Shown: positions 2 through 41,904, counted from the first letter of the stretch. The stretch is 64,000 nt of DNA from Candidatus Flemingiibacterium merdigallinarum (GCA_904386005.1 CAJFKR010000002.1:741-64740); one strand, 5' to 3'. Notes: a model not told the origin generated them from the sequence alone. Numbers and translations: made by a program.

Positions 2-874
2 AGAGTGAAGCCCGACTGCGCGTATATCCTCTGCGAGAATGTACAAAAGCCGCGGGTCGCGCTCGAGTGCGCGCGGCGGGGCGTCAACATAATAATCGAA
101 AAGCCGCTCGCCGCCGACCTCGCGGGCGCGGAGGTGATTGCCGGCGCGGCCGAAAAATACGGCGTCGAGGTAATAGTAAACTGGCCGGTCGCGTGGCGGG
201 GATATCTGCACCGGCAGAAGCGGGCGGCTGACGACCTACTTCTCGGCAGGTCGCTGCGGCTAAATTATCAGAATGGTCACACCGGTCCGCTCGGACAGGG
301 CGCGCGTCACCGCGGCGTCGCTGAAACAGCCGACGAAATGACCGACGAGGAACGGGGGAGCTGCTGGTGGTACCACTCGGACTGCGGAGGCGGAGCGCTG
401 CTCGACATACTCTGCTATGGCTGCTATTTTTCGCGCTGGTATTTCGGTCTGCCGCTCGGAGTGTCGGCGAGCGAGCAAAGACTTTCGCTGTCGTACGCCG
501 ATTGCGGCGACAACGCGGCGGCGATATTCAGATACGCCGACCGGCTCACGGTCGCCGAAGGCAGCTGGACGATACCGCGCCGGCTCGTGCCTGCCGGACC
601 GCAGCTGCTCTGCGAGGACGGCGCGCTCTGGTGCTCGGGCGGCGCTGATTCGAATCAGTCGGTCGAAGCCTGCACGCTCGCGGGCGAGGATGTGGTCGTT
701 CCCGAATTCGAGCTTTCGGACGATATGCGAAATCTGCCGTGGCACTACGCGGCACACCGGCTGCGCGGTAAGAAGCTGTTCGAGACGTTGGACCTCGGGT
801 TCAATCTCGACGTCATGCGTATGCTCGACACCGCGACGCGGTCGTCGCGCGAGGGACGAGAGGTCGAGCTGTGA
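2..874 (+). CDS. Gfo/Idh/MocA family oxidoreductase (5' end lies outside the window)
   Basis: The frame is open from the window edge. It carries the EKPLA motif (NIIIEKPLAADL) typical of the family. The stop codon TGA is at 872-874, directly ahead of the activase gene. Confidence 0.75.
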   Translation, partial: RVKPDCAYILCENVQKPRVALECARRGVNIIIEKPLAADLAGAEVIAGAAEKYGVEVIVNWPVAWRGYLHRQKRAADDLLLGRSLRLNYQNGHTGPLGQGARHRGVAETADEMTDEERGSCWWYHSDCGGGALLDILCYGCYFSRWYFGLPLGVSASEQRLSLSYADCGDNAAAIFRYADRLTVAEGSWTIPRRLVPAGPQLLCEDGALWCSGGADSNQSVEACTLAGEDVVVPEFELSDDMRNLPWHYAAHRLRGKKLFETLDLGFNLDVMRMLDTATRSSREGREVEL

Positions 875-885
875 GAGTGCACGCA

Positions 886-1737
886 ATGAGCGGCAGCGTC
901 GAGAGTGGGTTCGCGGTCGGTGAGCGCACGGCAGACATTTCAGGCGGCGATAATGCCGAGCCGGTTTACGGTCTCGTCGCCGACATTGAGCGCGGATCGC
1001 TGCACGACGGACCGGGTATACGCACCGCGGTATTCATGAAGGGCTGTCCGCTCGACTGCGCGTGGTGTCACAATCCCGAGTGCATATCGCCGAAGCCGCA
1101 GACTCTTTACTATCCCGAAAAATGCGTCGGCTGCGGGCACTGCGCCGACGGCTGTCACAACGGCGCTCGGGTCGTGTGCGGGAAAAGAATGACTCCGGAC
1201 GAGCTGCTTTTGGTGCTGCTCGAGGACCGCGAATACTACGGCGACACCGGCGGGCTTACGCTGACCGGCGGAGAACCGCTGATGCAGCCCGCGTTCGCGC
1301 GCGAGCTGATACGGCTCGCGCGGCGCGAGCGAATCGGCGTCGCGGTCGAGACCTCGCTGTATTATTATGACGAGGAGCTGCTTAAGTCATTCGACCTCAT
1401 AATGTTCGACCTGAAGCTGCCCGACGACGAACGTCACCGCAAATACACCGGAGTCGGCGTGACAAACATAAAGGAGCATATCCTTAAGGTCGCGCGTCTG
1501 GGTGTGAAGCTGCTCGCGCGCACACCGGTCGTGCCGGGAGTCAACGCCGACATTGAGACTATCGCCGAGATATCCGACTTTCTGTATTCGCTGCCCGCGG
1601 TGTACAAATACGAGCTGCTGCCCTATCATCCGCTCGGTCGACCCAAGCGGGAAGCGCTCGGGCTTCGGCCCGACCGATTCGATGTACCGGATAGGAAACT
1701 TATGGAGGAGCTTAACAGATATGCTTTCGTACGCTGA
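886..1737 (+). CDS. glycyl-radical enzyme activating protein (radical SAM)
   Basis: It has the CX3CX2C motif CPLDCAWC, a ferredoxin-type CVGCGHCADGC cluster and an LTGGEPL SAM-binding motif. I chose ATG 886 as the start; GTG 871 is an alternative. Confidence 0.9.
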   Translation: MSGSVESGFAVGERTADISGGDNAEPVYGLVADIERGSLHDGPGIRTAVFMKGCPLDCAWCHNPECISPKPQTLYYPEKCVGCGHCADGCHNGARVVCGKRMTPDELLLVLLEDREYYGDTGGLTLTGGEPLMQPAFARELIRLARRERIGVAVETSLYYYDEELLKSFDLIMFDLKLPDDERHRKYTGVGVTNIKEHILKVARLGVKLLARTPVVPGVNADIETIAEISDFLYSLPAVYKYELLPYHPLGRPKREALGLRPDRFDVPDRKLMEELNRYAFVR

Positions 1738-3934
1738 CCGAATCAAACTGATACGTGAAACCAAGCTGCGCCACACACTCGAAAAGCGCCGGCAGAACGG
1801 ATATACCGATCTCGACGATTTCGGCACGGTACCGCTGCCCGAGGGGTACGAGGTCCTGCCGCTGTATACGAGCGAAAACGGCAGCTTTTACGGATATGAG
1901 GGAATGGCGGAGAATTTCGTCCGCGTCCTCGACGCGCATCCGGCATATGTAGACCCGGCAGAGATGCTCTGCGGGCGCTGGCGGGATATGCTCGTCAACT
2001 ATCGCGGAGATTTGCACTATATGCCCGACTGGATGAAGAAAAACAAGCGGCTGCGCGACTTTATGTCGAGCTCGACCGAGCTGTGGTCGAAGCGTTGGGA
2101 CGAGAAGCGCTTTCCGTACGACGACCTCAAGGAGTCACAGCGGAAATACAACATCGCGTCGGGCATAGACGGAGACGCGCACTTCGCGTGCGATTGGCGA
2201 ATCGGCTTCGAGCTCGGGTTCGGGGGATTTCTCGAGAAGATAGAGAAGTACCGCCGACTGAATCCGGGGCGCGACGATTTCTACGACGCCGAGAAAAAGT
2301 GCGTTTTGGCTATGATACGCTTTATCGACCGCCATATCGCGAAAATCGGCGAGCTTATTGAGGTTGAGACGCGTCCCGAGCTTAAAGCGAGTCTCGAGAA
2401 AATGCGCGCTGTTTGTCAAAATATTCGCACCGGCAGACCTGAAACCTTTCACGAGGTCTGTCAGTGGACGGCGTTTTTCTGCTGCTTTTCGCGTATATAC
2501 ACGCGCGACGGCGCGGGATATCAGCTCGACACACTGCTCTACCCGTATTATGAGGCTGATATCGCGGCGGGGCGGCTCGACGACGAGACGGCGAAGTTCC
2601 TGATCGCGAACCTGCTGCTGATCGACCCGCATTATTATCAGCTGAGCGGTGTCGACGCGGACGACAAGGATCTTACGAACCGGCTGTCCTATCTGATCCT
2701 TGACGCCGCCGACCTTATCAACATCAGCTGCAACATGACCGTGCGGGTAGACGAGAGGTGCGATCCGGCGTTTTTGCGGCGGGCGGTCGAGTATCTGTAC
2801 AAAAATAAGAACGGCTGGCCGCGCTTCTGCTCGGACAGGAATCTCTGCGAGGGTTACATGAAAAACGGCGTCGACAAGGCGACGGCGCGCGAGCGTATCG
2901 CGGTCGGCTGCCACTGGATGTGCGTCCCGGGGCGAGAATTTCCGATGAACGACACGGTGAAGATAAACATCGCGAAGGTGCTCGAGCAGGCGATGATATC
3001 GCTGCGCGAGGAGGGACAGCCGAGTCTTGAGCGGCTGTACAGTCTCTGGGAGGAGCACCTCGGTTACGCGGCTGAAACGGTTGCGGCGGGGGTGAACCTG
3101 CACCTCGACCACATAGCCGACGTCACACCCGAGCTTGTGATGAACCTGATGTTTCACGGCTCGCTCGAGCGGGGACTGGACGCGTCGCGCTGCGCGGAGC
3201 TTTATACTGTCGGCTGCGACGGCGCGGGACTGGCTACCGTAGCCGACTCGCTCGCGGCTATCGAGGTCCGCGTCGAGCGGGAGGGACTGGTCAGCTGGGA
3301 GGAGCTGTTCGAGCAGCTCGACAGCGACTTTTCGGACGAGCGCATACGCGGTATTATGCAGTCGGCGCCGCGCTACTGTGAGGGAAATTCGTCAGGCGAC
3401 TACTGGGCGAAGCGGCTTACCGAGAGCTTTTCGCGGATAATCCGCGCCGTCCGTATGCCGAAAGGACGTAGGCTTATTCCCGGTTGGTTCTCGTGGGCGA
3501 GGACTATCGAATACGGTCGCGCGGTCGGCGCGACTCCGAACGGGCGGCGCGCGGGCGAGCCGATCTCGCACGGCGCGAATCCCAATCCCGGCTTCCGCCG
3601 CGACGGCGCGGTCACGGCGCAGTCAAACGGAATCGCCGCGGTACAGCCCGGATACGGCAACACCGCTCCGCTGCAGCTCGAATTCGATCCGCTGCTCAGT
3701 GCGGAGGAGGGCGGAGTCGATGTAGTGCTCGCGCTGATCAAAGGGCATTTCGCACGCGGAGGCACGCTGATAAACATCAACATCCTCGACGGCGCGAAGC
3801 TGCTCGAGGCGAATCGTGACCCCGACCGTTATCCGGATCTTGTGGTGCGGGTGACCGGCTTCACGGCCTATTTCGCGTCGCTGTCACCCGAATTCAGGCA
3901 GCTTGTGGTCGATCGGTTCCTTGAAATGAAATAA
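1721..3934 (+). CDS. glycyl radical enzyme, PFL-like fold, subfamily unassigned
   Basis: The C-terminal glycyl radical motif is VVRVTGFTAYF (Gly713). The conserved ATPNGRRAGEPISHGANP segment is present. The Cys loop reads AVGCHWMCVPG (Cys397). ATG 1721 lies 10 nt after GGAGGAG and overlaps the end of the activase gene. Confidence 0.9.
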   Translation: MLSYADRIKLIRETKLRHTLEKRRQNGYTDLDDFGTVPLPEGYEVLPLYTSENGSFYGYEGMAENFVRVLDAHPAYVDPAEMLCGRWRDMLVNYRGDLHYMPDWMKKNKRLRDFMSSSTELWSKRWDEKRFPYDDLKESQRKYNIASGIDGDAHFACDWRIGFELGFGGFLEKIEKYRRLNPGRDDFYDAEKKCVLAMIRFIDRHIAKIGELIEVETRPELKASLEKMRAVCQNIRTGRPETFHEVCQWTAFFCCFSRIYTRDGAGYQLDTLLYPYYEADIAAGRLDDETAKFLIANLLLIDPHYYQLSGVDADDKDLTNRLSYLILDAADLINISCNMTVRVDERCDPAFLRRAVEYLYKNKNGWPRFCSDRNLCEGYMKNGVDKATARERIAVGCHWMCVPGREFPMNDTVKINIAKVLEQAMISLREEGQPSLERLYSLWEEHLGYAAETVAAGVNLHLDHIADVTPELVMNLMFHGSLERGLDASRCAELYTVGCDGAGLATVADSLAAIEVRVEREGLVSWEELFEQLDSDFSDERIRGIMQSAPRYCEGNSSGDYWAKRLTESFSRIIRAVRMPKGRRLIPGWFSWARTIEYGRAVGATPNGRRAGEPISHGANPNPGFRRDGAVTAQSNGIAAVQPGYGNTAPLQLEFDPLLSAEEGGVDVVLALIKGHFARGGTLININILDGAKLLEANRDPDRYPDLVVRVTGFTAYFASLSPEFRQLVVDRFLEMK

Positions 3935-3936
3935 AA

Positions 3937-3970
3937 CGGGCGGGGATATTCTCCCTGCCCGCGTTTATTA
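3937..3970 (+). terminator. putative intrinsic terminator after the GRE gene
   Basis: The stem is cgggcgggga / tccctgcccg with one G-U pair and a tattc loop. It is followed by gcgTTTATT. Confidence 0.55.
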
Positions 3971-4054
3971 AGTTACGGTACAAATAGGCGTCGAGGCGTA
4001 AAAGCAGTTCCGACGTATTATATTTATTCGCGGCACTTCGACAGACTCAATATG

Positions 4055-4858
4055 TCACCTCTCGCTCGTGCCGACCGTCAGCTCGAGACCCCAGTTGCCG
4101 TCAGCCGAGACCGACAGCTCGCGCGCTCCAGTGAGCCGTTCGGTGAGCTCGCTCGGAATCTCGATATCGCGTATCAGACTGCCGTCCGCGTCATACGCGA
4201 GCCAGCTGCCGCCGTTGTATTCGAGATAGGAGTCGACCGGCAGACGACCGATTTCGTAATCGCAGCCGTTGACAGTCAGCGTAAGACGCTCGAGCGGTGC
4301 CTTTTCGAGCGGCAGCGCGGCGATGTCTCCGATTGTGACTGAACACTCCTCGCCGTCGGGCAGGTGGTTCAGCCAGACCGACAGACTGTATATGTTCGCG
4401 AAGCTTATCGACTCGCGCACGACCTGATACAAATCGGCGTCGGTCGACGACGGGTGCCATTCGTACTGCGAATAGGGGATATCCTGAGCTATGCGGAAGA
4501 TTGAAGCCTGCTTCGCAGTGTTGTAGTGACCGCCGCCCGAGAAGGGCCACGCGTCCTCGCTCGTGCGCTCGGCGTCGCTCTCGATGAGCTCAAAGTATTT
4601 CCAGCCGACAAAGTCGATGTCGACAATCCGGTCGAGAAGTCCGCTGTTCGTGTATTTCGGCGAGCGCAGCTGGAAGTCGAGCTTCTCGCCCTTGCCGTCG
4701 CCGCGGATGTATACTCTGATGCCGCGGCAGCCGCCGAGATTGAGCGTCGGCTCGTATACGCGGTCGATGCGCGCGTAGCCGTTCGCTCCGTCCTGCTTCG
4801 CGTTGATGCGTATCGCGTCCTTGCCGTCACTGTCGGTGTCGGCGCTGACGCTGGTCAT
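4055..4858 (-). CDS. hypothetical protein; probably the C-terminal part of the interrupted upstream gene
   Basis: This is a 267-aa ORF. Its frame stays open and protein-like upstream of the ATG as far as 5032 (…KLRLYNNSPSSVKISEGEKLEGLRIENRPF…). I recognised no family motif. Confidence 0.6.
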   Translation of the reverse strand: MTSVSADTDSDGKDAIRINAKQDGANGYARIDRVYEPTLNLGGCRGIRVYIRGDGKGEKLDFQLRSPKYTNSGLLDRIVDIDFVGWKYFELIESDAERTSEDAWPFSGGGHYNTAKQASIFRIAQDIPYSQYEWHPSSTDADLYQVVRESISFANIYSLSVWLNHLPDGEECSVTIGDIAALPLEKAPLERLTLTVNGCDYEIGRLPVDSYLEYNGGSWLAYDADGSLIRDIEIPSELTERLTGARELSVSADGNWGLELTVGTSER

Positions 4859-6783
4859 TACATTGGTCGACGACCACAGCTTGATTTTGCCGAAATCGTC
4901 ACTCGCCGACAGCAGAATTGATGTGTCTGCCGTCCTCGATGGGAAGGGGCGGTTCTCGATACGCAGCCCCTCGAGCTTTTCGCCCTCGGAAATTTTGACG
5001 CTGCTCGGCGAGTTATTATATAGACGAAGCTTTTATAACTTATCGGAATCGGTACGCCGCCGCGCAGAATCGCTTCTCCGTCGGGGTATTCGCCGTTAGG
5101 GGAATTGTGACGCAGCCGCTCGTAGCCCGAGATGATGTCAGAAAAGCGCCCGAGCTCGTCGTTCTGCTTGCAGCCGCCGACTATAAACGACAGCGACCAG
5201 TCGCCGCACAGCGAGCGATAACCGAAATATTCGTAGTCGTCGGCGAACATCCGGCGGGTCTGTATCGGGTCGTTCGGGTCGACGTGCGGATAGCACCACC
5301 AGCCGAAATTCTGCGGCAGCGTCGTCGCGGCACGTATGCGCTGATTGCTCCTGTCGTGCTGCGACAGCAGGAACTTGTGCGCGCGCCGCGAGTGGTCCCA
5401 CGCGCCCATGCGCGAACGATAGTACCAGAAATGGTGCCACATCTGGCTCATCTCGAGTATCGGCGGGCGATTTACATTCTTCATTATCTCGGCGACAAAT
5501 CTGTTCGCGTAGTACCAAGCCTTTTCGTATCCGGCGAAGATGTCGCTGCCGTCGATAGCGTCGAGGTAAATCATATCGAAGCCGAGGTCGTTGTAAAACT
5601 CCGCGGTGCGGCGGGCGATTTCGAGGTAGAGGTCGCTGTCCTTGTCGGCGCAGAACAGCCCGAACACCGAGTGCAGATGCTTTACATTCGCTCCGGTAGA
5701 ATGCGGCGCGGCAGTCGTGCCGAGCGCGCCCCGCTCGCAGCTCATGAACGCGCTGTCGCCGACCGCGCCGAAGCGGATCACCTCATTGTCCACGACCAAA
5801 TACACGCTGTTGCGGACAAAGAAGCCGGTCAGTGTCGACACATCCTTGGTCGACTCAATCGTCGGCAGCGAGTCAGCCGCCGCGTCGACGTCGACCGCGA
5901 GCGAAAACAGGTCGCCGCCGAGTCCGGGGTCGGGAACCGGTGTGACGAACTCTGAGCGCGGGTCGATGAACTGCGCGTAGGTGTGCAGCCCCGCCTGAAT
6001 GCCCGCCGAATGCAGCCGGTCGATTATCTTGCGGAAGTCGTCACGTCCGTGTGGGAAGCAGCTCTCGTTCAGCTTGAAGTCGCCGAAGCGGAAGGTCGAG
6101 CCGCCGTGAAAGTCGAGCTGAGACGCTCCGAAACGTTTGACTGTGGCGATCCAGTCGTCGACGCTGTCGATATCGATTCCGGTCGTATTCATAAGGTAGG
6201 AGCTGCGCACATCGCTGTTGTCGGCGGCATATGCTCCGCCCTTTTTCGACCACGGGATATCCTCGGTAAGATTTGACGTGACCCACTTCATACGCTCGCG
6301 CAGCCGTTCGGCTTCACAGAGCAGCACCGCGAACGCTCCGCCCTCGATGCCGAATTCGGAGAAGCACTCGGCGTGCGTGCGGTCAGACGCGGACAAAAGC
6401 TCGGACGAGTTTGTATGGCTGTTCAGCGCCATACCGACCGAAGCGTATTCTTTACCATGCTCAGGGCAAAAGACGCCGGCGAATTTCAGCCGCTCGAAGC
6501 TGTCCGGACAGGACACGATTTCAAAGCGCGCGCAGTATTCGTACATATCGACCTTGATTCTGACGTCGCCGTCGTCGAAGCGCGAGACGATACAGCCGTC
6601 TTTGTATGAAGCTGATGTAGGGAAAACGGTTCCGCCTTCAAGCTCTGCCGAGACAAACGGCAGTTGGCTTATCTCAAACCTGTCATAAAAGAGCGTGCAG
6701 GAGTTTTTTTTAATGAGAAAACGAAGATGTAGCCTATCCTTGGTCAATGTGAATTCATCGTTGTCGGAAAAGTATTGTAGCAT
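4858..6783 (-). CDS. hypothetical protein, possibly TIM-barrel glycosidase-like; the last ~55 codons look out of frame
   Basis: This is a 641-aa ORF. Its composition is protein-like up to ...GVPIPISYK, after which the tail is Arg/Ser/Cys-rich junk (ITRRAASKFPRAKSSRGCVSR...). The functional guess rests only on segments resembling alternating beta/alpha structure (DFHGGSTFRFGD, DMIYLDAIDGSD). Confidence 0.55.
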   Translation of the reverse strand: MLQYFSDNDEFTLTKDRLHLRFLIKKNSCTLFYDRFEISQLPFVSAELEGGTVFPTSASYKDGCIVSRFDDGDVRIKVDMYEYCARFEIVSCPDSFERLKFAGVFCPEHGKEYASVGMALNSHTNSSELLSASDRTHAECFSEFGIEGGAFAVLLCEAERLRERMKWVTSNLTEDIPWSKKGGAYAADNSDVRSSYLMNTTGIDIDSVDDWIATVKRFGASQLDFHGGSTFRFGDFKLNESCFPHGRDDFRKIIDRLHSAGIQAGLHTYAQFIDPRSEFVTPVPDPGLGGDLFSLAVDVDAAADSLPTIESTKDVSTLTGFFVRNSVYLVVDNEVIRFGAVGDSAFMSCERGALGTTAAPHSTGANVKHLHSVFGLFCADKDSDLYLEIARRTAEFYNDLGFDMIYLDAIDGSDIFAGYEKAWYYANRFVAEIMKNVNRPPILEMSQMWHHFWYYRSRMGAWDHSRRAHKFLLSQHDRSNQRIRAATTLPQNFGWWCYPHVDPNDPIQTRRMFADDYEYFGYRSLCGDWSLSFIVGGCKQNDELGRFSDIISGYERLRHNSPNGEYPDGEAILRGGVPIPISYKSFVYIITRRAASKFPRAKSSRGCVSRTAPSHRGRQTHQFCCRRVTISAKSSCGRRPM

Positions 6784-7955: not shown

Positions 7956-8055
7956 CTATATTTACCGCGACGCTTCCGCGGAGATGTCGCGGATCATTTT
8001 TGGTCTGATATTACAGCTGTGATTTTAAATTGTGCGATCAATATGACTGCTGTCA

Positions 8056-9546
8056 TCAGCCGAGATCGCTGTTTTCAGCCGCCTTGTCCTCAAACGCGGA
8101 GGTGTCGGTCGTGGCGGTCGTCGGCACATATTCGTGCAGCGTTACCTCGACGTCGTAGTACTGTCCGCCGCGGATGACCTTGATTGTCACAACGTCGCCG
8201 ACCTCGTGCTCCTTGAGTATCGCCTTGATGTCGCTGCTGTAGGTTACCTGCTCGTCGTCTATGCCTACGATGCGGTCGCCGGCCTTGAGCTCGTCAGTGT
8301 ATTCGGACGAAACTACGTATACGCCGTAGTCGCTGACACGATAGTACATAGCTTCCATCTGACTGTCAATGTCGATGTAGCTGATGCCGAGCATTACCTT
8401 GCCGCGCACGTAGCCGTAGTTGACAAGCTCGGTCGAGACCTTGACGGCGGTGTTGACCGGGATCGCGAAGGCTATGCCCTCGACCGATGTGCCGGACGAT
8501 GAGGTCGTCGATTTCGCGTTGACGATACCGATGAGCTCGCCGTACATATTGAACAGTCCGCCGCCCGAGTTGCCGGGGTTGACGGCAGCGTTGGTCTGTA
8601 TAAGGGTCATTTCGGTGCCCTCGATGTTGACGTCACGCGAAAGCGCGCTGATGATACCGTTGGTGACGGTGCCGCCAAGCTCGCCGAGCGGGTTGCCGAC
8701 CGCTACGACTTCCTGACCGACCTTAAGCTCGTCGCTGTCGCCGATGAGCGCGAACGGAAGGTCGGTGGCGTCAATCTTGATGACCGCGATATCGCTCTCC
8801 GAGTCAGTGCCGATGAGCTCTGCCGGATATTCGGTTCCGTCCTTGGTTGTGACGGTTATCGTGTTCGCGCCCTCAACGACGTGGTTGTTAGTTATAATCA
8901 GACCGTCGGCGCTGATTATAACGCCGCTGCCCGCGCCGGATGTGATGTAGCCGCCGCCCCAGAACGAGGTGTCAGTCGATATTGACTCGGTGACAATCTC
9001 AACTACGGTCGGGGTTACCGCTTCAGCCACCTGCTCGTAGGTGCCGGCGGTCTTGTTTTCGTTGTCATACGACTGGAAGATTACCGACGGGCTGCCCGAC
9101 GAAGCGTTCGACGAGTTCGGAGCGGAATCCGGGGTTTTGGAAAGGCTGTTCGCAAGATACGTGCCGCCGAACGCCGCGCCGCCCGAGAAGACCATGCAGA
9201 TCGCGACTACAGCCGCAACCGCGCCTACGCTAAGGCGACCCTTCGGAGCCTTCTGCTTCTTAGATTCGGGCTTGTTGTTGATGTAGACCGGCTCGTTCGA
9301 GATCTTAGCGAAATTAGAGGTTGTGTCGTGGTAGCGCGAGAAGTCCGGACTGCCGTTATTTGCGGCGTGTTGAGATTCGGTGTGTACCGAATCAGCCTGC
9401 GGTGTGCTTGTCTGCGTGTTCTCGGCAGCTTTGTTCATCGGCTCGGAGGAAGCCGCGCCGACTGTGCCAGATGCCGACTCGTTCGTTACGCGATTGGTAT
9501 TTTCATCGCTTTGATTATTGTCTTTATAAAGATTGTTGTTATCCAT
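8056..9546 (-). CDS. S1C (HtrA/DegP-like) serine protease with a PDZ domain and an N-terminal membrane anchor
   Basis: The catalytic triad contexts are TNNHVVEGA, DIAVIKI and GNSGGGLFN. A C-terminal PDZ-like region is present. The N-terminus is low-complexity and is followed by a hydrophobic segment (VAAVVAICMVFSGGAAFGG). Confidence 0.9.
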   Translation of the reverse strand: MDNNNLYKDNNQSDENTNRVTNESASGTVGAASSEPMNKAAENTQTSTPQADSVHTESQHAANNGSPDFSRYHDTTSNFAKISNEPVYINNKPESKKQKAPKGRLSVGAVAAVVAICMVFSGGAAFGGTYLANSLSKTPDSAPNSSNASSGSPSVIFQSYDNENKTAGTYEQVAEAVTPTVVEIVTESISTDTSFWGGGYITSGAGSGVIISADGLIITNNHVVEGANTITVTTKDGTEYPAELIGTDSESDIAVIKIDATDLPFALIGDSDELKVGQEVVAVGNPLGELGGTVTNGIISALSRDVNIEGTEMTLIQTNAAVNPGNSGGGLFNMYGELIGIVNAKSTTSSSGTSVEGIAFAIPVNTAVKVSTELVNYGYVRGKVMLGISYIDIDSQMEAMYYRVSDYGVYVVSSEYTDELKAGDRIVGIDDEQVTYSSDIKAILKEHEVGDVVTIKVIRGGQYYDVEVTLHEYVPTTATTDTSAFEDKAAENSDLG

Positions 9547-11176: not shown

Positions 11177-14100
11177 ATGAGAAATCTTAAGAAATTTCTC
11201 GCATTAGTACTTGCAATGCTCATGATTGTAAGTGCTTCTGCAGCAGTTTCTGCTTCCGATTTCAGCGACGTCGCTGACGACAGCATTTATGCTGAAGCCA
11301 TTGCCGACCTCGTTGAAAAAGGAATCACGAACGGTGTTGCCGAAGGTCAGTTCGGACCGGATCAGCCCGTTCAGAGATTCCAGATGGCTCTCTTCATGGC
11401 GCGTGCACTCGAGCCTGATGTAGACGACTGGATGACCGGTATGCAGGTCTTCACCGACGTTACCGAATGGTACGGCGCAATTGCATACGCTTATGTTAAC
11501 AACATTGTTACCGGTATGGGTAACAACCTGTTCGCTCCGCACGACGGAATCAGATATCAGGATGCCCTGATTATGGCTCTCCGTGCTCTGGGCTACAAGG
11601 TTGATGTATCCGGCGATCCTTACTGGCTCGAAGCTTACAACCAGGCTCAGGCTCTTGGTCTCACAAAGGGTGTTGAAGTTTATGTTGGCGAGCAGGTTCT
11701 TACCAGAGCCGAGACCGCTCAGATAATCTACAACATGCTGTACACCACTCCGGCTGACGGCGGCGCAACTATCGCAGCTAAGAACTTCGGCGAGGCTACC
11801 GCGGCTAATACCACTACCATGGTTGTAACCGCTACTCCGAAGCAGGCTTATGCTGAGTCGTACAAGGCTGCTGAAGAGGGCTATCTTGGACTTCAGACTG
11901 TTGTTAACGGTCTGCCTGCTGGCGATGTACTCTATCTCCCTGCTGCTGTTCTCGGCGTTGATGCTGACGACGTTGAAGCATACTTCGGTTATTCTTTCGA
12001 TTTCGTTAACTACGATGCAGAGAATGGATCTTTTGACAATGTTATGATTGGCGAGGATCCGGTTGTTGTTTACAGCACCGATGTCACCAAGAATTCCAAT
12101 GAAAAGATCACCATTGATGGCACTGCTTACTACACTGTTGACGAATTTGAAGGTGCAGCCCTGAAGAACGAAATCGTTGTTTACAATGCTGGCGATCTCG
12201 CATATCTCCAGAAGGTTCTGTACACCGACAAGGACGGAAATGTTGTTAATTCTAATGGCGATATAGTAGCTCGTTACTCGCACAAGTCGTCTGATGGAAC
12301 TAAGTTCTATCTTGACCTTGCTGCAAATGTAATCATCACTGAAGAAGCTGCTCTTGCTAAGTATGGTATTGATGTTGCTGACGACAGCTATATCAAGTAT
12401 TCTACTCTTTCCGCTAAAGATCTTGATGAAATCGGCAACTATCAGCTGACCCTCTTTGATGACGACCGCGACGGCAAGTTCGAGCGCGCAATCGTTACCA
12501 ACGTTTACATGTCCGCATTCAAGGCTAAGGACAGCGGCAAGGAAACCTTTGGTCCGATGAAGGACGAAAAGGATGTTGTTTATACTGAAGACCTTACTAA
12601 GGGCGAAGTATTCACCTACACCTACAACTCTCAGACCAAGGTTGTAACCGTTCTTGATGTTCTTGACATCAACTATGGTACTCTGACCAAGATCGACACC
12701 ACTAAGGTTGGCGATAAGGTTGTTAAGCTTACCATTGACGGCGAAGTTTACACTGTAGCTAACGCAGATCTCGCAAAGAAGACCGGCGCTACAATCTATG
12801 ATTACAACTCCAACGGTTTCGACAACATCGCTAAGGAAGCACAGCTCGGTTATGCTGATTATAAGGATCTTACTATTGGTTCGGCTATTGCTTACTATGA
12901 GTACAATGGCTATATAATCAACGCTAAGACCTATCCTATTGATGAAGCATTTGATCGCGTAGTTATCGACCAGATCGTTTCATACGACAGCGAAAATGTT
13001 TATGCTGACCTCTACATAGGCGGTAAGCTCGTTTCTAACGTAGCTATTTCTAATGTTGAGGGCACGAAGATTTCTTCGATGAATATCTTCCAGCTTTCGA
13101 GACTCCTCTCCGATGATGCTTGGAATCGTGGTAATGTCTTTAAGGCTGTAAAACTGTCTGATGGTTCATATCAGATTAGCGAAGAGCTTGTTCTGAGTGG
13201 CGATGACAAGAATGTAGTTGACTTCAAGCTTGTTACTGAGACATTTGGTACTGTTGTTTCGTTTGAAGATGGTATTGCTGATATCTACAATTCTGATAAT
13301 ACCATTGAACGTGATCGTGTAATTCGTTCGGATGAGAAAACTGTTTTCTACTTCCTCAAGAAGAACGATGAGGGCAAGGTCGTTTCTATCGCTACATTCG
13401 TAGGCGCAGCTGACAATTCGTCTATTGATTTCACTGGTTCCGATAAGCCTGTGATTTACGCTGATAAGATTGGTTACGGTAATAATGATAGCTACACAGA
13501 TGGCAAAGTCAATGGCGTAGCATCGTTCGTACTCGTTTACTACACTGATTCTAATGACATCTCTGGCTTTGGCGTAGCAAACATTGACTACTCCACTGTT
13601 TATGTTGTTAACAATACTGACAAGGTTAAGGCTTATGAAGCAGCTTCTGCTGAAGAGCTTGGTCTTGTTGGCAGCGAATACACCGGTAAGTACTTCGTAC
13701 GTTACACCGCTGATGGACTCGCTGTTGACATGAGCACTGGTAAGAAAGTTAACACCATCTATGTTGAAGTTGGCAAAGAAATTGAAGCTGATAACTTCTA
13801 TGTACTCTCTGTTGATAATGTAGTCCTCTTCAATAAGAAGGCTAATGTAACAGGTGCAGTTCTTAAGGCTAACGGATTCACAGATGCACGTTACTGGACA
13901 ATTACTGATGTTGACGGTAAAAAGATTGTTAATAACACTGTTGATAAGGTAAGCTCTGTATATCTCACTGCTGATACAGCAATTGATGTTAAGACTTCCG
14001 CTAAGGATGTCCTCACTGATGGTAAGGCATATACTGTTAAGTATGTTCCGAACTTCACCGATGGAACATTCGTTGGTATCGTTGTTAAGAGCTCTGATTC

Positions 14101-14500
14101 TGTAGATCCTAATCCTGACAAAGCAAACGCTACTTGGAAGACCACTGGTGGCAATGTACTGGATGCTGTAAAGGATTTGAATGTTGAAGCTAAGGGTACT
14201 ATTACTCTCTACAAGAGCGGCGACGGTACTGCTACTGGTGTTAGCACTCGTAGCGAAGCAGCTTCCGCTAATTGGACTGCTAAAGTTATGAAGTATGATG
14301 GATTTGATTCCACCGAAATCAAGGGCGTAAATGTTGACGCTACTCTTAAGGACGGTGTTATCACCATCAATGGTTACAAGAACAATCTTGGCAACAAGAC
14401 TGAACTTGCAGCTGGTGATTATGAGATTGTACTTACCTGTGACAACACTACTCCTGATGGTAAGGCAGTAGAAGTTACTTTCACAGTAACCGTTAAATAA
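11177..14500 (+). CDS. SLH-domain cell-wall / S-layer protein
   Basis: It has a signal peptide and N-terminal SLH repeats (FSDVADDSIYAEAIADLVEKGITNG..., FAPHDGIRYQDALIMALRALG). A long Thr/Val/Asp-rich beta-type region follows. Upstream is a strong AAGGAG Shine-Dalgarno site. G+C is visibly lower than in the neighbouring genes. Confidence 0.9.
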   Translation: MRNLKKFLALVLAMLMIVSASAAVSASDFSDVADDSIYAEAIADLVEKGITNGVAEGQFGPDQPVQRFQMALFMARALEPDVDDWMTGMQVFTDVTEWYGAIAYAYVNNIVTGMGNNLFAPHDGIRYQDALIMALRALGYKVDVSGDPYWLEAYNQAQALGLTKGVEVYVGEQVLTRAETAQIIYNMLYTTPADGGATIAAKNFGEATAANTTTMVVTATPKQAYAESYKAAEEGYLGLQTVVNGLPAGDVLYLPAAVLGVDADDVEAYFGYSFDFVNYDAENGSFDNVMIGEDPVVVYSTDVTKNSNEKITIDGTAYYTVDEFEGAALKNEIVVYNAGDLAYLQKVLYTDKDGNVVNSNGDIVARYSHKSSDGTKFYLDLAANVIITEEAALAKYGIDVADDSYIKYSTLSAKDLDEIGNYQLTLFDDDRDGKFERAIVTNVYMSAFKAKDSGKETFGPMKDEKDVVYTEDLTKGEVFTYTYNSQTKVVTVLDVLDINYGTLTKIDTTKVGDKVVKLTIDGEVYTVANADLAKKTGATIYDYNSNGFDNIAKEAQLGYADYKDLTIGSAIAYYEYNGYIINAKTYPIDEAFDRVVIDQIVSYDSENVYADLYIGGKLVSNVAISNVEGTKISSMNIFQLSRLLSDDAWNRGNVFKAVKLSDGSYQISEELVLSGDDKNVVDFKLVTETFGTVVSFEDGIADIYNSDNTIERDRVIRSDEKTVFYFLKKNDEGKVVSIATFVGAADNSSIDFTGSDKPVIYADKIGYGNNDSYTDGKVNGVASFVLVYYTDSNDISGFGVANIDYSTVYVVNNTDKVKAYEAASAEELGLVGSEYTGKYFVRYTADGLAVDMSTGKKVNTIYVEVGKEIEADNFYVLSVDNVVLFNKKANVTGAVLKANGFTDARYWTITDVDGKKIVNNTVDKVSSVYLTADTAIDVKTSAKDVLTDGKAYTVKYVPNFTDGTFVGIVVKSSDSVDPNPDKANATWKTTGGNVLDAVKDLNVEAKGTITLYKSGDGTATGVSTRSEAASANWTAKVMKYDGFDSTEIKGVNVDATLKDGVITINGYKNNLGNKTELAAGDYEIVLTCDNTTPDGKAVEVTFTVTVK

Positions 14501-14518
14501 TCACTCATCGTGATTTCT

Positions 14519-14550
14519 CCCCCGCTCCCATTCGGGAGCGGGGATTTTTT
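14519..14550 (+). terminator. intrinsic terminator of the SLH gene
   Basis: The stem is ccccgctccc / gggagcgggg with an attc loop, followed by ATTTTTT. Confidence 0.85.
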
Positions 14551-14554
14551 ATAT

Positions 14555-14580
14555 AAAAAAAGAGCGGCGCTGTGCCGCTC
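14555..14580 (-). terminator. intrinsic terminator of mazF (minus strand)
   Basis: The stem is gagcggc / gccgctc, followed on the minus strand by TTTTTTT. Confidence 0.8.
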
Positions 14581-14612
14581 GTAATATTTATATGCCATTG
14601 CGCATATATTTG

Positions 14613-14960
14613 TCAATTACTCGTATCTGTTTCCTCTCTGCTGATTTCTAATATGAGGATGCTTAGAACTTCTTCCAATATGTCATAAGGGATTTGTTCG
14701 ATATAACGATAGGTTCTTTGGCTTAAATCCATTGTTCGTATTTGCTCACACATAATAAATCCGGTTGTAGAACAGCGGCTGTCAAGGGCAACATGAAATG
14801 GATTGTTTCTTTGCGTATTTGTGATGGGACAGAGTATTGTCAGATTGCAATTTGCATTATAAAAGTCGTTGCTCACTACTAAGGCAGGTCTGCGTCCGGC
14901 TTGTTCATGCCCTATCTGAGGGTCAAAGCTGACTATAATAATGTCGCCTTGCTTTACCAT
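14613..14960 (-). CDS. mazF: MazF/PemK family type II toxin (endoribonuclease)
   Basis: The N-terminus KQGDIIIVSFDPQIGHEQAGRRPALVV closely parallels E. coli MazF (GDLIWVDFDPTKGSEQAGHRPAVV). Its start overlaps the mazE stop codon (ATGGTAA). Confidence 0.9.
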   Translation of the reverse strand: MVKQGDIIIVSFDPQIGHEQAGRRPALVVSNDFYNANCNLTILCPITNTQRNNPFHVALDSRCSTTGFIMCEQIRTMDLSQRTYRYIEQIPYDILEEVLSILILEISREETDTSN

Positions 14961-15184
14961 ACTTCATCCCCCACCGGCGCGCCCCAATCGACTTCTTCTT
15001 CGACAACTTTTCCAGTAAAGCCGCGCGCCGCGAATAATTCTTTCAAGCTGTCATAACGTTTCGTTGTCTTCGTTATTACGATTTTGCCGTCAGACACGTC
15101 AACTGACACATTGTCGTCAATACTGATCCGCGCCGAATCGAGAATAGCTTTGGGTATGCTCCATTTTTGTATGTTCGTGGTCAT
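14954..15184 (-). CDS. mazE: MazE (AbrB/SpoVT-fold) antitoxin
   Basis: The C-terminus VDWGAPVGDEVW parallels E. coli MazE (IDWGEPKDKEVW). GAGGTG lies 6 nt upstream of the ATG. Confidence 0.85.
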   Translation of the reverse strand: MTTNIQKWSIPKAILDSARISIDDNVSVDVSDGKIVITKTTKRYDSLKELFAARGFTGKVVEEEVDWGAPVGDEVW

Positions 15185-15204
15185 GTTATCACCTCACTTG
15201 GTTT

Positions 15205-15245
15205 GTTTATATAGTATATACTATTATCTCGCTGTTGTCATTTTT
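15205..15245 (-). promoter_or_regulatory. mazEF promoter with a palindromic operator
   Basis: On the minus strand the layout is ATGACA, 17 nt, then TATACT. The palindrome TAGTATATACTA overlaps the -10 box. The 23-nt core at 15208-15230 is identical to 15668-15690. Confidence 0.65.
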
Positions 15246-15626
15246 ATGGCGGTGGCTATATATTTTGTGCTGATATTCGGAATCGTATTTCGCTAAAAGA
15301 TATAAGCAGTATTGATTAAAGCTGATACCCTCGGCGCGTGAGTGCTCGGCAAGTGATTTGTGCAGTGATTTCGGCACCGTGAGCCGGAATTGTCCGGAGT
15401 ATTCGTTTTGCGGCGTCGGCTCGGGAATGTCAATGCCGTCTTCAATAGCCGCGGAGAGCCACTCGCGCTTGCAGTCAATTGCCGATTTCATTGCTTCTTC
15501 CATAGTGTCCGCACAACTTATGCAGCCTGGCAGCTCCGGAAAACATACCGCGAACCCACCCTCGGCAGCGTCCGGTATTATCTCCATGCGGTAGGGGAGC
15601 TGCATATATTCGTCAATTGTTCGCAT
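15207..15626 (-). CDS. hicB: HicB family antitoxin with a C-terminal ribbon-helix-helix domain; no hicA partner seen
   Basis: The HicB core is YRMEIIPDAAEGGFAVCFPELPGCISCADTMEEAM and the RHH-like tail is FRLTVPKSLHKSLAEHSRAEGISFNQY. ATG 15626 is preceded by GGAGGA; the ORF track starts at 15644. Confidence 0.8.
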   Translation of the reverse strand: MRTIDEYMQLPYRMEIIPDAAEGGFAVCFPELPGCISCADTMEEAMKSAIDCKREWLSAAIEDGIDIPEPTPQNEYSGQFRLTVPKSLHKSLAEHSRAEGISFNQYCLYLLAKYDSEYQHKIYSHRHKNDNSEIIVYTI

Positions 15627-15664
15627 CTGTTTCCTCCATTTCATACATTGTTTTGATTTATATT

Positions 15665-15705
15665 GTATATATAGTATATACTATTATCTCACAATTGTCA
15701 ATACA
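15665..15705 (-). promoter_or_regulatory. hicB promoter with the same palindromic operator
   Basis: On the minus strand the layout is TTGACA, 17 nt, then TATACT. It carries an identical 23-nt core, tatatagtatatactattatctc. Confidence 0.65.
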
Positions 15706-15721
15706 CATTATGTAAATTCAC

Positions 15722-15759
15722 ATAAGAATAAACCCGAGCGGTAGTCTACCGCTCGGGTT
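15722..15759 (-). terminator. intrinsic terminator after the yhaN-like gene
   Basis: A 14-bp stem, aacccgagcggtag / ctaccgctcgggtt, is followed on the minus strand by TATTCTTAT. Confidence 0.7.
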
Positions 15760-15770
15760 CATAATTATAC

Positions 15771-17957
15771 TTACATCTTGATCAGCTTGAATTCGCCCAG
15801 CGCGCGCATCGCGTCCGCGTCGCGGCTGTTCGACGTCAGGATTATGCTTTGTTCCTGCGTCGCGACTATGCGCAGTAGTATCGCCAGACGCTTGTCGTCG
15901 ATGTGCGCGAAGCTCTCGTCGAATATCATCGGCGGGGCGCATTTCGTGAATACCAGCCGGGTCAGCGCGAATCGCAGACAGAGATACGCCGCGTCGCGTG
16001 TGCCCGTGCTCAAGAAATTAATCGACTTCGTGCCGTTATCGGTGAGCGCCGACAGCTCAAGCTCGCCGCCGACTCCGACCTCTGTGTACTTTCCTCCGGT
16101 CACCGCGCCGAGCAGCTTCGACGCGTCGGCTGACAGCCGCGGCGATACGCTCCGGCGCAGATTTTCGCTCGCTTCGACCAGCTTGTCATACGCGAGCAGA
16201 TACGCCGCGTGCTTCGCGCGCAGTGACTCGCGTTCGCGCTTCAGCGACTCGAGCCGGTCTGATAGCTTCGCAGGATTCTCGCTCACCGGATAGAGTCCGG
16301 CAAGCTCCTTCTCGGTCGCGTTCGCCGCGACTCCGAGCGATGCTGAGCTCTTCTCGCAGAAGTCAGCCAGCCGCTTCATGTCGTTGTAGTTAGCCTTGTC
16401 AATGTCCGAAATGTCAATCGACATATCGACCGCGGCAGTGACGTCGGCTTCGTTGTAGCGCGACAGCTGCTCGCGCATCTCGCCGAGCCGCTCCGAGCTC
16501 TTGTCGTACTCGGCCTTCAGACTTTCCGCCGAGCCGAGCTGCGATGTGAGCTCATTAAGACGCGCGGTCAGTGCCGCCGTTATGTCGTCGTCCGACGCGC
16601 CTGTGAGCCCCAGCTCGCGCGACAGGTTGGCGATGAATTCCTCGTACCGCTTCTTTGCTTCGTCGCGTGCGCGAGCCGCGTATTTCGCGGTCTCCTCGGC
16701 TTCGCAGCGAGCCGCGAGCTCGTTTTCGAGTGTATCCACGTCGAATTCCTCGTACAGCTTCGCTGCCGCGCTCCGACTTCGCGCCGACAATATGAACAGC
16801 GTCACGCCGATCGCGGCTATGACCGCGCCGATGACCGCGATCAGCTTCGGCAGTATCGACGGCAGCAGGAATGGCAGCACTGCCGCGACCACGCCTATGA
16901 CCAAAGTCGCCGCCGCGCCGAACGCGAATGCCGACGACTTCGACTTGAGCGTGCTGTATTCGGCGTTGATTCCGTCCGCGCCGCCGCGCCGCGTATATTC
17001 GTCGAGCTTCGAGTCGAGCTGCGGGTCGCGCGGCGGCAGGCTGTCGTCGGCGCAGGCAGCCTCGGCGGCGTCATAATCACTGCGCAGGGACGCAAACCGC
17101 TCGCTCTCGCTGCGCAGCTTATTGATAAGCTCGGGATCCGGCGCGCCCGACGCGTCGATTTTCTGCCGCAGCTCGGCGGTCTGCTGCTCGTATTCGTGCA
17201 TCCGCTTGAAAAAGCGGGCGATCGTGCGCAGCTCGAACTGCGACAGCTTCCGTCGGAGCAGCTCGGCTTTTTTACTGTTGTCGCTCGCGTTTTTGCGCAG
17301 GTCGGCGAGCTTCGATTCCTTTTTCGCGATCTCATCATGATTTTTCAGCGCGTTCGCGAGCCTGCCCTCAAGCTCGGCGCACTCGGTGTCGAGCTCGTAC
17401 AGCCGCCCGCCACTGCCGTTTTTATGCAGCAGCTTCACCCGCGCCGCGTCGAGCTTGGACAACGCGCGCTGTGTGTTCACCGTCTCGTCTGCTGAAAACA
17501 GCAGATTCTCGATTCCCTCGGCGACCTTCGCGCCGCCGGTCGAATTCCCGAGCTGCGACACGAATGCCGTCGCCGCGAACATATCCGCGTCGGGACCGAA
17601 GAACAGCTCGCCCGGTGACTCACCTTTGTGACAGGGGCTGTTGTCGGCAAGGTCGATTATTTGCAGCGACTCGCGGAAGGACTGCCGCTCGCCGTTCGGC
17701 GTCAGCGACCGCTCGACGCGGTAGCGATGCCCGTCGACGCTGAATGTGAGCGAGCCGTCGGCGCGGCTGTCGCTCCAGCTGGCATAAGCGGCGCGCTCTT
17801 TTGCCGGTATGCCGTAGAAGATGAATTTGATGAAGGCGCAGAGCGTCGATTTGCCGCTCTCGTTCTCGCCCTCGATGATGTTGACGCCCGGCGACAATTC
17901 GAGCTCGTAGTCTCGCAGCCTGCCGAAAGCTTTGATGTTCAGTTTTTCTATTATCAT
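15771..17957 (-). CDS. YhaN-like AAA / Rad50-SbcC-type ATPase with a membrane hairpin in the coiled coil
   Basis: The N-terminal Walker A context is IIEGENESGKST. Long Ala/Glu/Lys/Leu-rich coiled-coil regions follow. Two hydrophobic helices lie mid-protein. The C-terminal signature and Walker B region is LSTGTRDAAYLCLRFAL...PPMIFDESFAHID. Confidence 0.8.
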   Translation of the reverse strand: MIIEKLNIKAFGRLRDYELELSPGVNIIEGENESGKSTLCAFIKFIFYGIPAKERAAYASWSDSRADGSLTFSVDGHRYRVERSLTPNGERQSFRESLQIIDLADNSPCHKGESPGELFFGPDADMFAATAFVSQLGNSTGGAKVAEGIENLLFSADETVNTQRALSKLDAARVKLLHKNGSGGRLYELDTECAELEGRLANALKNHDEIAKKESKLADLRKNASDNSKKAELLRRKLSQFELRTIARFFKRMHEYEQQTAELRQKIDASGAPDPELINKLRSESERFASLRSDYDAAEAACADDSLPPRDPQLDSKLDEYTRRGGADGINAEYSTLKSKSSAFAFGAAATLVIGVVAAVLPFLLPSILPKLIAVIGAVIAAIGVTLFILSARSRSAAAKLYEEFDVDTLENELAARCEAEETAKYAARARDEAKKRYEEFIANLSRELGLTGASDDDITAALTARLNELTSQLGSAESLKAEYDKSSERLGEMREQLSRYNEADVTAAVDMSIDISDIDKANYNDMKRLADFCEKSSASLGVAANATEKELAGLYPVSENPAKLSDRLESLKRERESLRAKHAAYLLAYDKLVEASENLRRSVSPRLSADASKLLGAVTGGKYTEVGVGGELELSALTDNGTKSINFLSTGTRDAAYLCLRFALTRLVFTKCAPPMIFDESFAHIDDKRLAILLRIVATQEQSIILTSNSRDADAMRALGEFKLIKM

Positions 17958-17969
17958 TGCGGACCTCTA

Positions 17970-41326: not shown

Positions 41327-41434
41327 ATTTTTCAGTCCTTTCACAGAATTTTATGCTACCATTATACCACAACTTCGGGCAAATAACAAGCAATAATTTC
41401 GTGCATATGTATGCGGTGATATTAATAATACGGC

Positions 41435-41904
41435 GGGCTGAATGATAGTCGGGATGGCGGGCTGAATGGCAGTCGGAATTGCGGGCTGAATGTAGTTGGA
41501 ACGACGGACTGAATGGCAGTCGGAATTGCGGGCTGAATGATAGTTGGAACAGCGAGCTGAATGGCAGTCGGGACAGCGAGCTTAATGTAGCTGGAACAGC
41601 GGACTGAATATAGTTGGAACGATGGGTTGAATGACAGTCGGAACGATGGGCTGAATGATAGTCTGAACGGCGAGCTGAATGGCAGTCGTGACAGTAGGCT
41701 GAATGGTAGTCTGAACAGCGGGCTGAATGACAGTCGGAACGATGGGCTGAATGATAGTCGGGACAGCGGACAGAATGACAGTCGTAACGACGGACTGAAT
41801 TAAGTCGTGACAGTGGGCTGAATTTAGTCGTGACAGCGGGCGTAATGACAGTTGTAACAGCAGGCTGAATGGTTGTTTGATTGGCAGGGATTACAGCAGG
41901 AATT
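41435..41904. repeat. degenerate 23-24-bp tandem array, about 19-20 units (consensus GGGCTGAATGRYAGTCGGAACRRC)
   Basis: I parsed the units consecutively by eye. Stop codons occur in all frames. The array lies between the spoIVA terminator cluster and the HTH gene. Confidence 0.9.

Follow-up and report, generated by a model that had tools for sequence, protein, structure and literature searches.

Glycyl radical enzymes with tryptophan in the cysteine loop, encoded with a DgpA-like dehydrogenase in an operon of gut Clostridia

The stretch of DNA analysed here (the window) comprises 64,000 nt of Candidatus Flemingiibacterium merdigallinarum, read on one strand, and the feature under study occupies its positions 2-3934. 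This segment carries the 3′ part of a Gfo/Idh/MocA gene (GfoA2), the gene of a glycyl radical enzyme (GRE) activase and the gene of the GRE itself, and is followed by a terminator (Table 1). We read the locus, as the best account of it, as the 3′ end of a catabolic operon under AraC control in an uncultured gut Clostridia bacterium. Its GRE belongs to a biochemically unassigned group from gut Clostridia and other lineages, the C-x-W clade, in which tryptophan stands two residues after the catalytic cysteine (Cys+2), and it probably performs a radical sugar reaction not yet described.

A first-pass annotation of this DNA had described the three genes as an operon, and the gene junctions, coordinates, protein length, catalytic residues Cys397 and Gly713, the 316-residue spacing between them and the motifs all check out in the sequence. 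The activase and GRE genes overlap by 17 nt, a GGAGGAG ribosome-binding site precedes the GRE ATG, and an alternative GTG start of the activase is possible at 871. Since the hairpin with its T-rich tail follows the stop codon, and the genes beyond it are convergent on the minus strand, the GRE is the last gene of the operon. The three genes are indeed co-directional, but the operon is larger than had been proposed, with four Gfo genes in all and an AraC regulator upstream of them. GfoA2 is truncated by the window start, which removes ~62 N-terminal codons relative to the full-length orthologue at locus L005 (66% identity of the window part to residues 63-353). The upstream genes are found on a public contig identical to the window across 13,934 bp (ENA ERZ1478594 scaffold_56, locus L071), which holds the full GfoA2 gene at 8009-9154 and gives the order divergent AraC regulator, GfoB1, GfoA1, GfoB2, 590-bp spacer, GfoA2, activase and GRE.

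Table 1. Features of the GRE locus, in window coordinates
Feature	Position	Strand	Remarks
GfoA2 (divergent Gfo/Idh/MocA), 3′ 290 codons	2..874	+	PF01408, PF22725; stop TGA 872-874
GRE-activating enzyme (radical SAM), 283 aa	886..1737	+	TIGR02494, PF04055; ATG 886, stop TGA 1735-1737
Radical SAM motif of activase, C54-x3-C58-x2-C61	1045..1068	+	Cys kept in 93% of 43 family activases
Auxiliary Fe-S region of activase	1123..1179	+	Single C80-x2-C83-x2-C86-x3-C90 + C98; weak Fer4 matches
GRE, 737 aa, C-x-W clade	1721..3934	+	PF02901 + PF01228; start ATG 1721
Predicted thiyl Cys loop, A394-VGCHWMCVP-G404	2900..2932	+	Cys397 2909-2911 (TGC), Trp399 2915-2917
Asp411 (Cys+14)	2951..2953	+	Invariant in C-x-W clade; aligns with glycerol dehydratase (GD) Asp447
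Glu471	3131..3133	+	Invariant in C-x-W clade; candidate relocated acid/base
Glycyl radical motif VVRVTGFTAYF	3842..3874	+	Gly713 = GGC 3857-3859; PF01228
Intrinsic-terminator-like hairpin, 10 bp stem (8 GC pairs), T-rich tail	3937..3971	+	End of operon

Judged by its sequence, the 737-residue protein is a genuine GRE, with Cys397 as the predicted thiyl residue, Gly713 as the predicted radical glycine and an adjacent cognate radical SAM activase, as had been claimed. Both the pyruvate formate-lyase (PFL)-like barrel (PF02901, E 3.6e-86) and the C-terminal glycyl radical domain (PF01228, E 1.7e-11) are present, and the activase matches TIGR02494 at 245 bits against a 174-bit cutoff, as well as PF04055. 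The glycyl motif contains the expected RVxG signature (RVTG713F); RVTGFTAYF is found in 118 of 120 homologue clusters, and Gly713 is conserved in at least 96% of representatives. Aminoacyl radical enzymes are defined by Ala, Ser or Thr in place of Gly as the radical-storage residue (PMC13450708), and the conserved Gly713 places the protein outside that group.

The assignment of the catalytic cysteine to the finger loop between the two half-barrels comes from alignment and conservation, which both point to Cys397. HMMER alignments to 2f3o, 1r8w and 5i2a place it on the catalytic Cys of their G-C-V-E loops, with Trp399 on the Glu. Among the 16 cysteines of the GRE, Cys397 is 100% conserved across the wider C-x-W clade and all others reach at most 38%. 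The triplet C491-A-E493, considered as an alternative site, falls outside the finger loop, opposite GD G540-A-E542 in the alignment, and conservation of Cys491 reaches only 19%. An AlphaFold2 (AF2) model of the protein (pLDDT 81.5, pTM 0.86) is less confident on the Cys and Gly loops (pLDDT 65-71); a fold search with it returned 1r8w, 5i2a and 2f3o as top matches (TM ~0.79, 19-23% identity) and favoured eliminase and isomerase GREs.

Eliminase-type GRE activases usually carry two C-x2-C-x2-C-x3-C motifs; the conserved columns in an alignment of 43 activases of this family comprise one such motif and one or two further cysteines, which suggests a single auxiliary Fe-S cluster rather than two.

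The window protein is one of a well-populated family of more than 120 clusters (at 90% identity), whose members are 71-81% identical to it, 735-746 aa long and labelled only "formate acetyltransferase" or "PFL family protein". The enzyme occurs in 60 species-representative genomes, comprising metagenome-assembled genomes of gut, rumen and faecal Clostridia and the cultured Qingrenia yutianensis. The first-pass annotation singled out the loop GCHWMC as the distinguishing feature, and of its three unusual positions only the tryptophan stands as such. The loop consensus is RIAVGC-N-W-M-C-VPG-x-E, with GCNWMC in 116 of 120 clusters, and the wider pattern of the family reads RIAVGC[N/H]WM[C/A/S]xPGxE. 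His at Cys+1 stands in for Asn only rarely, in the window's own cluster and two species loci (L045, L063), and is discarded as a special feature. At Cys401 (Cys+4), eight loci have Ala or Ser instead (L014, L045, L046, L049, L052, L054, L059 and L060), among them all family members of 48-56% identity, and the position is Cys in only 27% of representatives of the wider C-x-W clade. Two of the three unusual positions are thus incidental.

To place the tryptophan in the superfamily, we drew on an exhaustive search of 1.8 billion cluster representatives, which yielded 715 proteins at E <= 1e-30, and took an alignment and neighbour-joining tree over 98 full-length representatives. The residue at Cys+2 is Trp in 26 of these, Glu in 56 and another residue in the remaining 16; a departure from Glu at this position is therefore not peculiar to the window protein. 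The 26 C-x-W sequences form one deep monophyletic clade with no other sequence inside it, and are shorter than the C-x-E sequences (median 732 against 782 aa). Trp399 is 100% conserved in the clade, as is Glu at the same position in the C-x-E set. Two acidic residues accompany the tryptophan: Asp411, 100% in C-x-W against 28% in C-x-E GREs, and Glu471, likewise 100% in C-x-W but no more than 15% in the C-x-E set, whose local motif is P-x-P. Further signature residues are Glu406 (88%) and Thr712. The clade is therefore defined by Trp at Cys+2 together with Asp411 and Glu471, and not by the exact GCHWMC string. Glu at Cys+2 and Glu471 are perfectly reciprocal between the two groups, a swap which suggests that the acid/base residue has been relocated from the Cys loop, with Glu471 as the candidate.

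The clade extends well beyond the window's family. A sister subfamily at ~40% identity, with the loop G-C-H-W-S/F, is found in Chloroflexi, Poribacteria, Firmicutes and Bathyarchaeota. Some C-x-W GREs are ~1050 aa long (sister-clade P0326 and P0129); P0326 fuses radical SAM and ferredoxin domains to the GRE and, from this domain layout, would be a natural activase-GRE fusion.

The sequence lacks the signatures of the established GRE classes with which it was compared. The C-x-E motif of the 1,2-eliminases and isomerases (GD, propanediol dehydratase, HypD, CutC, IslA, HpsG, HplG, PflD and YbiW), whose Glu forms a hydrogen bond with the substrate hydroxyl or deprotonates it, is absent, Cys+2 being Trp399, and the protein falls below the NCBIfam cutoff of every equivalog hidden Markov model (HMM): TIGR01774, 241 bits against 678; HpsG, 181 against 1000; HypD, 169 against 1100; CutC, 146 against 1050. 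The models of the GRE decarboxylases and X-succinate synthases are likewise unmatched (HPAD, 88 against 1150; indoleacetate decarboxylase, 87 against 1100), and the operons surveyed hold no conserved small-subunit open reading frames (ORFs) of the kind associated with those enzymes. The adjacent cysteine pair of the formate-lyases is missing too, with the second cysteine at +4 and unconserved, which bears out the earlier observation that the loop lacks both the C-x-E glutamate and the CC pair. A PFL/TdcE-like 2-keto-acid formate-lyase with two loop cysteines is accordingly very improbable: the database names and the two loop cysteines favour it, whereas the TIGR01255 score reaches 77 bits of the 994 required, the fold matches favour eliminases and PFL structures are the weakest full-length GRE matches.

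Searches for an assigned relative gave the same picture, in agreement with the first-pass claim of an uncharacterised reaction: no homologue with an assigned reaction appeared in NCBIfam, in PDB sequence and fold searches, in source names or in the literature, including a June 2026 review (PMC13450708). The PDB holds no solved structure within the C-x-W clade, also when queried with its distant members P0151 and P0163. In the literature, with coverage of subscription journals incomplete, we found no function for the clade and no GRE linked to Gfo/Idh/MocA enzymes, DgpA, inososes, anhydro-sugars or keto-glycosides. According to the review, all C-O, C-N and C-S GRE eliminases and the three isomerases keep CXE, two loop cysteines occur among GREs other than ribonucleotide reductases (RNRs) only in PFL and TdcE, and whole GRE clades are still unannotated (PMC13450708).

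Genomic context gives an indication of what the enzyme may act on. We surveyed 60 species-representative loci, with each count taken over the loci that have enough flanking sequence. In 45 of 51 loci the gene immediately before the GRE is the activase, and GfoA lies upstream in 45 of 50, the order GfoA-activase-GRE recurring in 45/50 at the species level; the association with Gfo/Idh/MocA genes noted at the window is therefore a conserved linkage. GfoB lies upstream in 34 of 46 loci and an AraC regulator in 24 of 39. A long Gfo protein (GfoL, 10/39) and a TIM-barrel protein of the AP_endonuc_2 family (11/39) are less frequent and, where this pair is found, it substitutes for the first GfoB/GfoA pair. 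An oxidoreductase dependent on flavin adenine dinucleotide (FAD; PF12831) lies downstream of the GRE in nine loci. No microcompartment or transporter gene is a conserved partner in the loci surveyed, as had been observed for the window alone. Two Clostridia loci are organised differently: at L048 7061-9205, and also at L047, a second GRE of 715 aa with a G-C-G-E loop, 26% identical, directly precedes the activase and the C-x-W GRE. Neither locus has Gfo genes, and with the activase common to both GREs the arrangement looks like a two-GRE/one-activase module.

The Gfo/Idh/MocA partners differ in how closely they resemble solved enzymes. GfoB2-type proteins match DgpA (PDB 7xr9) over their full length at E 1e-55 to 1e-57 and 36% identity, and their next solved match is thirty orders weaker (E 1e-24 to 1e-25). 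The window organism's own GfoB2 (L071 6272-7417, outside the window) is 80% identical to that of L005, which matches 7xr9 at E 1.4e-56, and a DgpA homologue lies directly upstream of GfoA-activase-GRE in most species with the enzyme. DgpA is the NAD-dependent C-glycoside 3-dehydrogenase of gut bacteria that acts in the DgpABC pathway. That pathway, like the levoglucosan and AL/BT pathways, places a lyase step between two reactions of paired Gfo enzymes, an oxidation at C3 and a later reduction of 3-keto-glucose, which sets a precedent for paired oxidoreductases working via 3-keto-glycosides (10.1101/2024.03.25.586180; 10.1101/816074). By homology, the DgpA-like dehydrogenase of the operon is predicted to carry out C3-oxidation, and it lends weight to the first-pass suggestion that the substrate is an oxidised sugar or polyol.

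GfoA proteins, GfoA2 among them, keep the EKP and D-x3-Y catalytic motifs and have G-x-A-H-x-H in place of G-x-G-x-x-G/A. The first-pass annotation named the adjacent partner an NAD(P)-type sugar oxidoreductase; the Gfo/Idh/MocA domains agree with this, while the "NAD(P)-type" label is not established, because the dinucleotide-binding motif is atypical. Assignments of the Gfo genes as inositol, levoglucosan or UDP-GlcNAc dehydrogenases were rejected, with NCBIfam scores all far below cutoffs. A metal-dependent TIM-barrel lyase of the DgpBC, LgdB or AL1 type was sought as well: the window organism's operon contains no AP_endonuc_2 gene (one such gene lies on L071 beyond a DarT-Macro pair), and the operon TIM protein, where present, resembles hydroxypyruvate/2-oxo-tetronate isomerases (Hyi/OtnI), with no DgpC match reaching 1e-10.

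Taken together, these associations lead us to propose, with a probability of about one half, that the GRE uses radical chemistry to cleave a bond of, or to isomerise, an oxidised (keto) sugar or glycoside made by the Gfo enzymes. By analogy with the pathways above, the Gfo/Idh/MocA enzymes would oxidise a sugar, a (C-/O-)glycoside, an anhydro-sugar or a cyclitol to a keto intermediate, from which the Cys397 thiyl radical of the activated GRE would take a hydrogen atom next to the carbonyl or hydroxyl. The resulting carbonyl-conjugated radical could then undergo C-O (or C-C) cleavage or isomerisation, after which Cys397 would quench the product radical and the glycyl radical would be regenerated. 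The loop glutamate may be dispensable in such a scheme: the carbonyl of the substrate would itself stabilise and acidify the radical, or else Asp411 or Glu471 would serve as the base. The GRE would in this way replace, or widen the reach of, the metal-dependent TIM-barrel lyases of the DgpABC, levoglucosan and AL/BT 3-keto-glycoside pathways.

Several observations weigh against this proposal. The chemistry is drawn from gene context. GfoA, the partner most often kept, combines its atypical Rossmann motif with weak similarity to solved enzymes; five of the 50 loci have the GRE without an upstream GfoA gene; and L047 and L048 pair the C-x-W GRE with a canonical G-C-G-E enzyme. The loci surveyed show no conserved transporter, kinase or aldolase in the operon that would narrow the substrate class, and the flanking glycoside hydrolases vary between genomes. 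In the sister subfamily the partners are URO-D (3/7 loci), FAD oxidoreductases, sugar ABC transporters and GH31/36; since these differ, the Gfo link cannot account for the Trp loop across the clade as a whole, and our attempt to generalise it there failed. Other flanking genes were tried as substrate clues and set aside: glycoside hydrolase, transporter and CBM genes vary from genome to genome, and two ORFs of 641 and 267 aa downstream of the window GRE show no similarity to DUF6259 or to other unknowns flanking homologues.

The alternative that survives best, tentative and on balance unlikely, is that the GRE acts first, on a reduced substrate, as a polyol, anhydro-sugar or cyclitol dehydratase or ring-opening isomerase akin to GD or PflD/YbiW, with Asp411, Glu471 or Glu406 as base, and that the Gfo enzymes then reduce or oxidise the deoxy-keto product. 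It would account for the nearest sequence and fold matches, which are GD, propanediol dehydratase (PD), 2f3o and PflD. It also fits the conservation of GD His164 and Asp447, the latter of which we take to be a substrate-binding residue, at the aligned positions His154 and Asp411, and it gives a use to the clade-specific carboxylates Glu471 and Glu406. The DHDPS-type and RraA-type aldolases at the sister-clade locus L067 would suit deoxy-keto products. However, every characterised dehydratase or isomerase keeps C-x-E, all equivalog HMM scores lie far under their cutoffs, and a DgpA-like gene typically belongs to pathways in which oxidation comes first.

A bolder form of the proposal that the GRE acts on a keto sugar made by the Gfo enzymes is more doubtful still: the C-x-W clade would be a new mechanistic class of GRE, with the acid/base role moved to Asp411/Glu471, and the window enzyme a radical deglycosylase or ring-opening lyase that splits a C-C or C-O bond in the product of the DgpA-like dehydrogenase, a 3-keto-(C-)glycoside or a keto-anhydro-sugar. 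If so, gut Clostridia would be able to attack linkages resistant to hydrolysis and E1cB elimination by a radical route that needs no metal.

Net reduction in the style of class III RNR (reductive dehydroxylation or deglycosylation) is decidedly improbable. Its electrons would come from Cys397 and Cys401, with Met400, or from an external reductant, and the dehydrogenases would balance redox; the C-N/H-W-M-C loop of the family, with Met at +3 and Cys at +4 in most clusters, the four oxidoreductase genes of the operon and the downstream FAD oxidoreductases could all be read this way. Yet Cys401 is not retained as Cys in several members and in most of the clade, for which we rejected it as a PFL-like or RNR-like catalytic partner; Met400 is also unconserved in the wider clade, and the protein has no sequence affinity to NrdD. 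Finally, a degenerate or inactive paralogue, or a Trp loop produced by sequencing or assembly error, to which the missing glutamate and the low AF2 confidence on both loops might point, is hardly credible given that loop, Gly motif and dedicated activase are conserved throughout the clusters and 60 species, that the family alignment has a mean column identity of 82% and that the identical sequence is present on 22 independent contigs.

We also recorded features around the operon. Just upstream of window base 1, between the DgpA-like GfoB2 and GfoA2, the AT-rich spacer of 590 bp (L071 7418-8008) is built from a ~300-bp element that bears 25-nt terminal inverted repeats and is present twice in tandem (copies 83-85% identical), resembling a miniature inverted-repeat transposable element; the spacer may divide the operon and provide a promoter for GfoA2-activase-GRE. 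Adjoining the AraC regulator on the same contig and outside the window (L071 815-2729), a DarT-like gene (PF14487) and a Macro-domain gene make up a DarTG-type toxin-antitoxin/defence pair. The 641-aa and 267-aa ORFs, which overlap and run convergently on the minus strand (4055-6783), match no Pfam family above cutoff, their sole match being a weak CBM_11; they are kept at the locus in all contigs of the window organism and are unrelated to the flanking genes of other species.

Farther into the window, the G+C content falls to 0.42-0.45 at 12000-16000, against ~0.56 elsewhere, over the 3′ part of the gene for a 1107-aa SLH-domain protein (11177-14500) and the region beyond, which may be a foreign or fast-evolving cell-surface region. 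On the minus strand at 15771-19100, a 728-aa AAA_23/SMC_N ATPase adjoins a 376-aa calcineurin-like phosphoesterase as an SbcCD-like nuclease pair, the ATPase having an additional weak match to the S_4TM effector domain. Two repeat arrays complete the inventory: a 24-nt unit repeated ~18.5 times in tandem (74% matches), with a higher-order period of 118 nt, at 41433-41871, and a 27/54-nt array at 37336-37467.

Gut-microbial GRE reactions affect the host through the formation of trimethylamine, p-cresol, skatole and H2S and through the use of hydroxyproline and anhydro-sugars, and every new GRE functional class to date arose from an unannotated clade of this sort. The C-x-W clade is large and phylogenetically broad, spanning gut and rumen Clostridia, Chloroflexi, Poribacteria and Bathyarchaeota, and it departs from the single catalytic motif common to all eliminases and isomerases. 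Assigning its reaction would test the dispensability of the loop glutamate for GRE chemistry, and could show that the oxidative breakdown of dietary glycosides or unusual sugars includes a radical step. Qingrenia yutianensis (assembly GCA_014385105.1), a carrier in culture with the operon at L001 5005-12214, opens the question to direct test.

Among known systems, PFL and TdcE share the superfamily domains and more than one cysteine on the loop with the window GRE, which differs in lacking an adjacent CC. The PFL2 of Archaeoglobus fulgidus (2f3o; similar in length at 776 aa, function debated) is the top PDB sequence match (E 1.3e-52), but has a canonical G-C-V-E loop and falls outside the C-x-W clade. 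The DgpA/DgpBC, AL/BT and levoglucosan pathways resemble the window's system in their paired Gfo/Idh/MocA enzymes, in the full-length DgpA homologue two genes upstream of the activase and in the AP_endonuc_2 gene of some loci; they differ in that no DgpB/DgpC-type lyase is conserved at the loci of the window's family, and we found no publication tying a GRE to a DgpA-type pathway. PflD and YbiW, which open the ring of 1,5-anhydrohexitol-6-phosphate (8id0, 8yjo, 8id7), offer a parallel as gut-bacterial GREs acting on sugar-derived substrates in a sugar-metabolic context, with fold similarity at TM 0.77-0.80. These enzymes, however, retain C-x-E, whose Glu433 and Glu443 hydrogen-bond the substrate C2-OH (PMC13450708), use phosphorylated substrates, whereas no kinase is conserved at the window loci, and have other operon partners.

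GD (1r8w) and PD (5i2a, 9rco) are the systems whose folds come closest to the window GRE. At 19-23% identity, they differ from it in the Glu at Cys+2, which is an invariant Trp in the window's clade, in the His281-Ser282 region of GD, which is deleted in a protein ~50 residues shorter, in a TIGR01774 score far below the cutoff, in the single rather than double C-x2-C-x2-C-x3-C motif of the window activase and in the lack of microcompartment genes near the window locus. Their likeness to the window GRE lies in the fold (TM 0.78-0.79, E ~1e-34), in a sequence match that for GD is among the top ones (E 6.5e-49), in an activase of the TIGR02494 type, in the like placement of the Cys and Gly loops and, for GD, in the conserved His/Asp pair.

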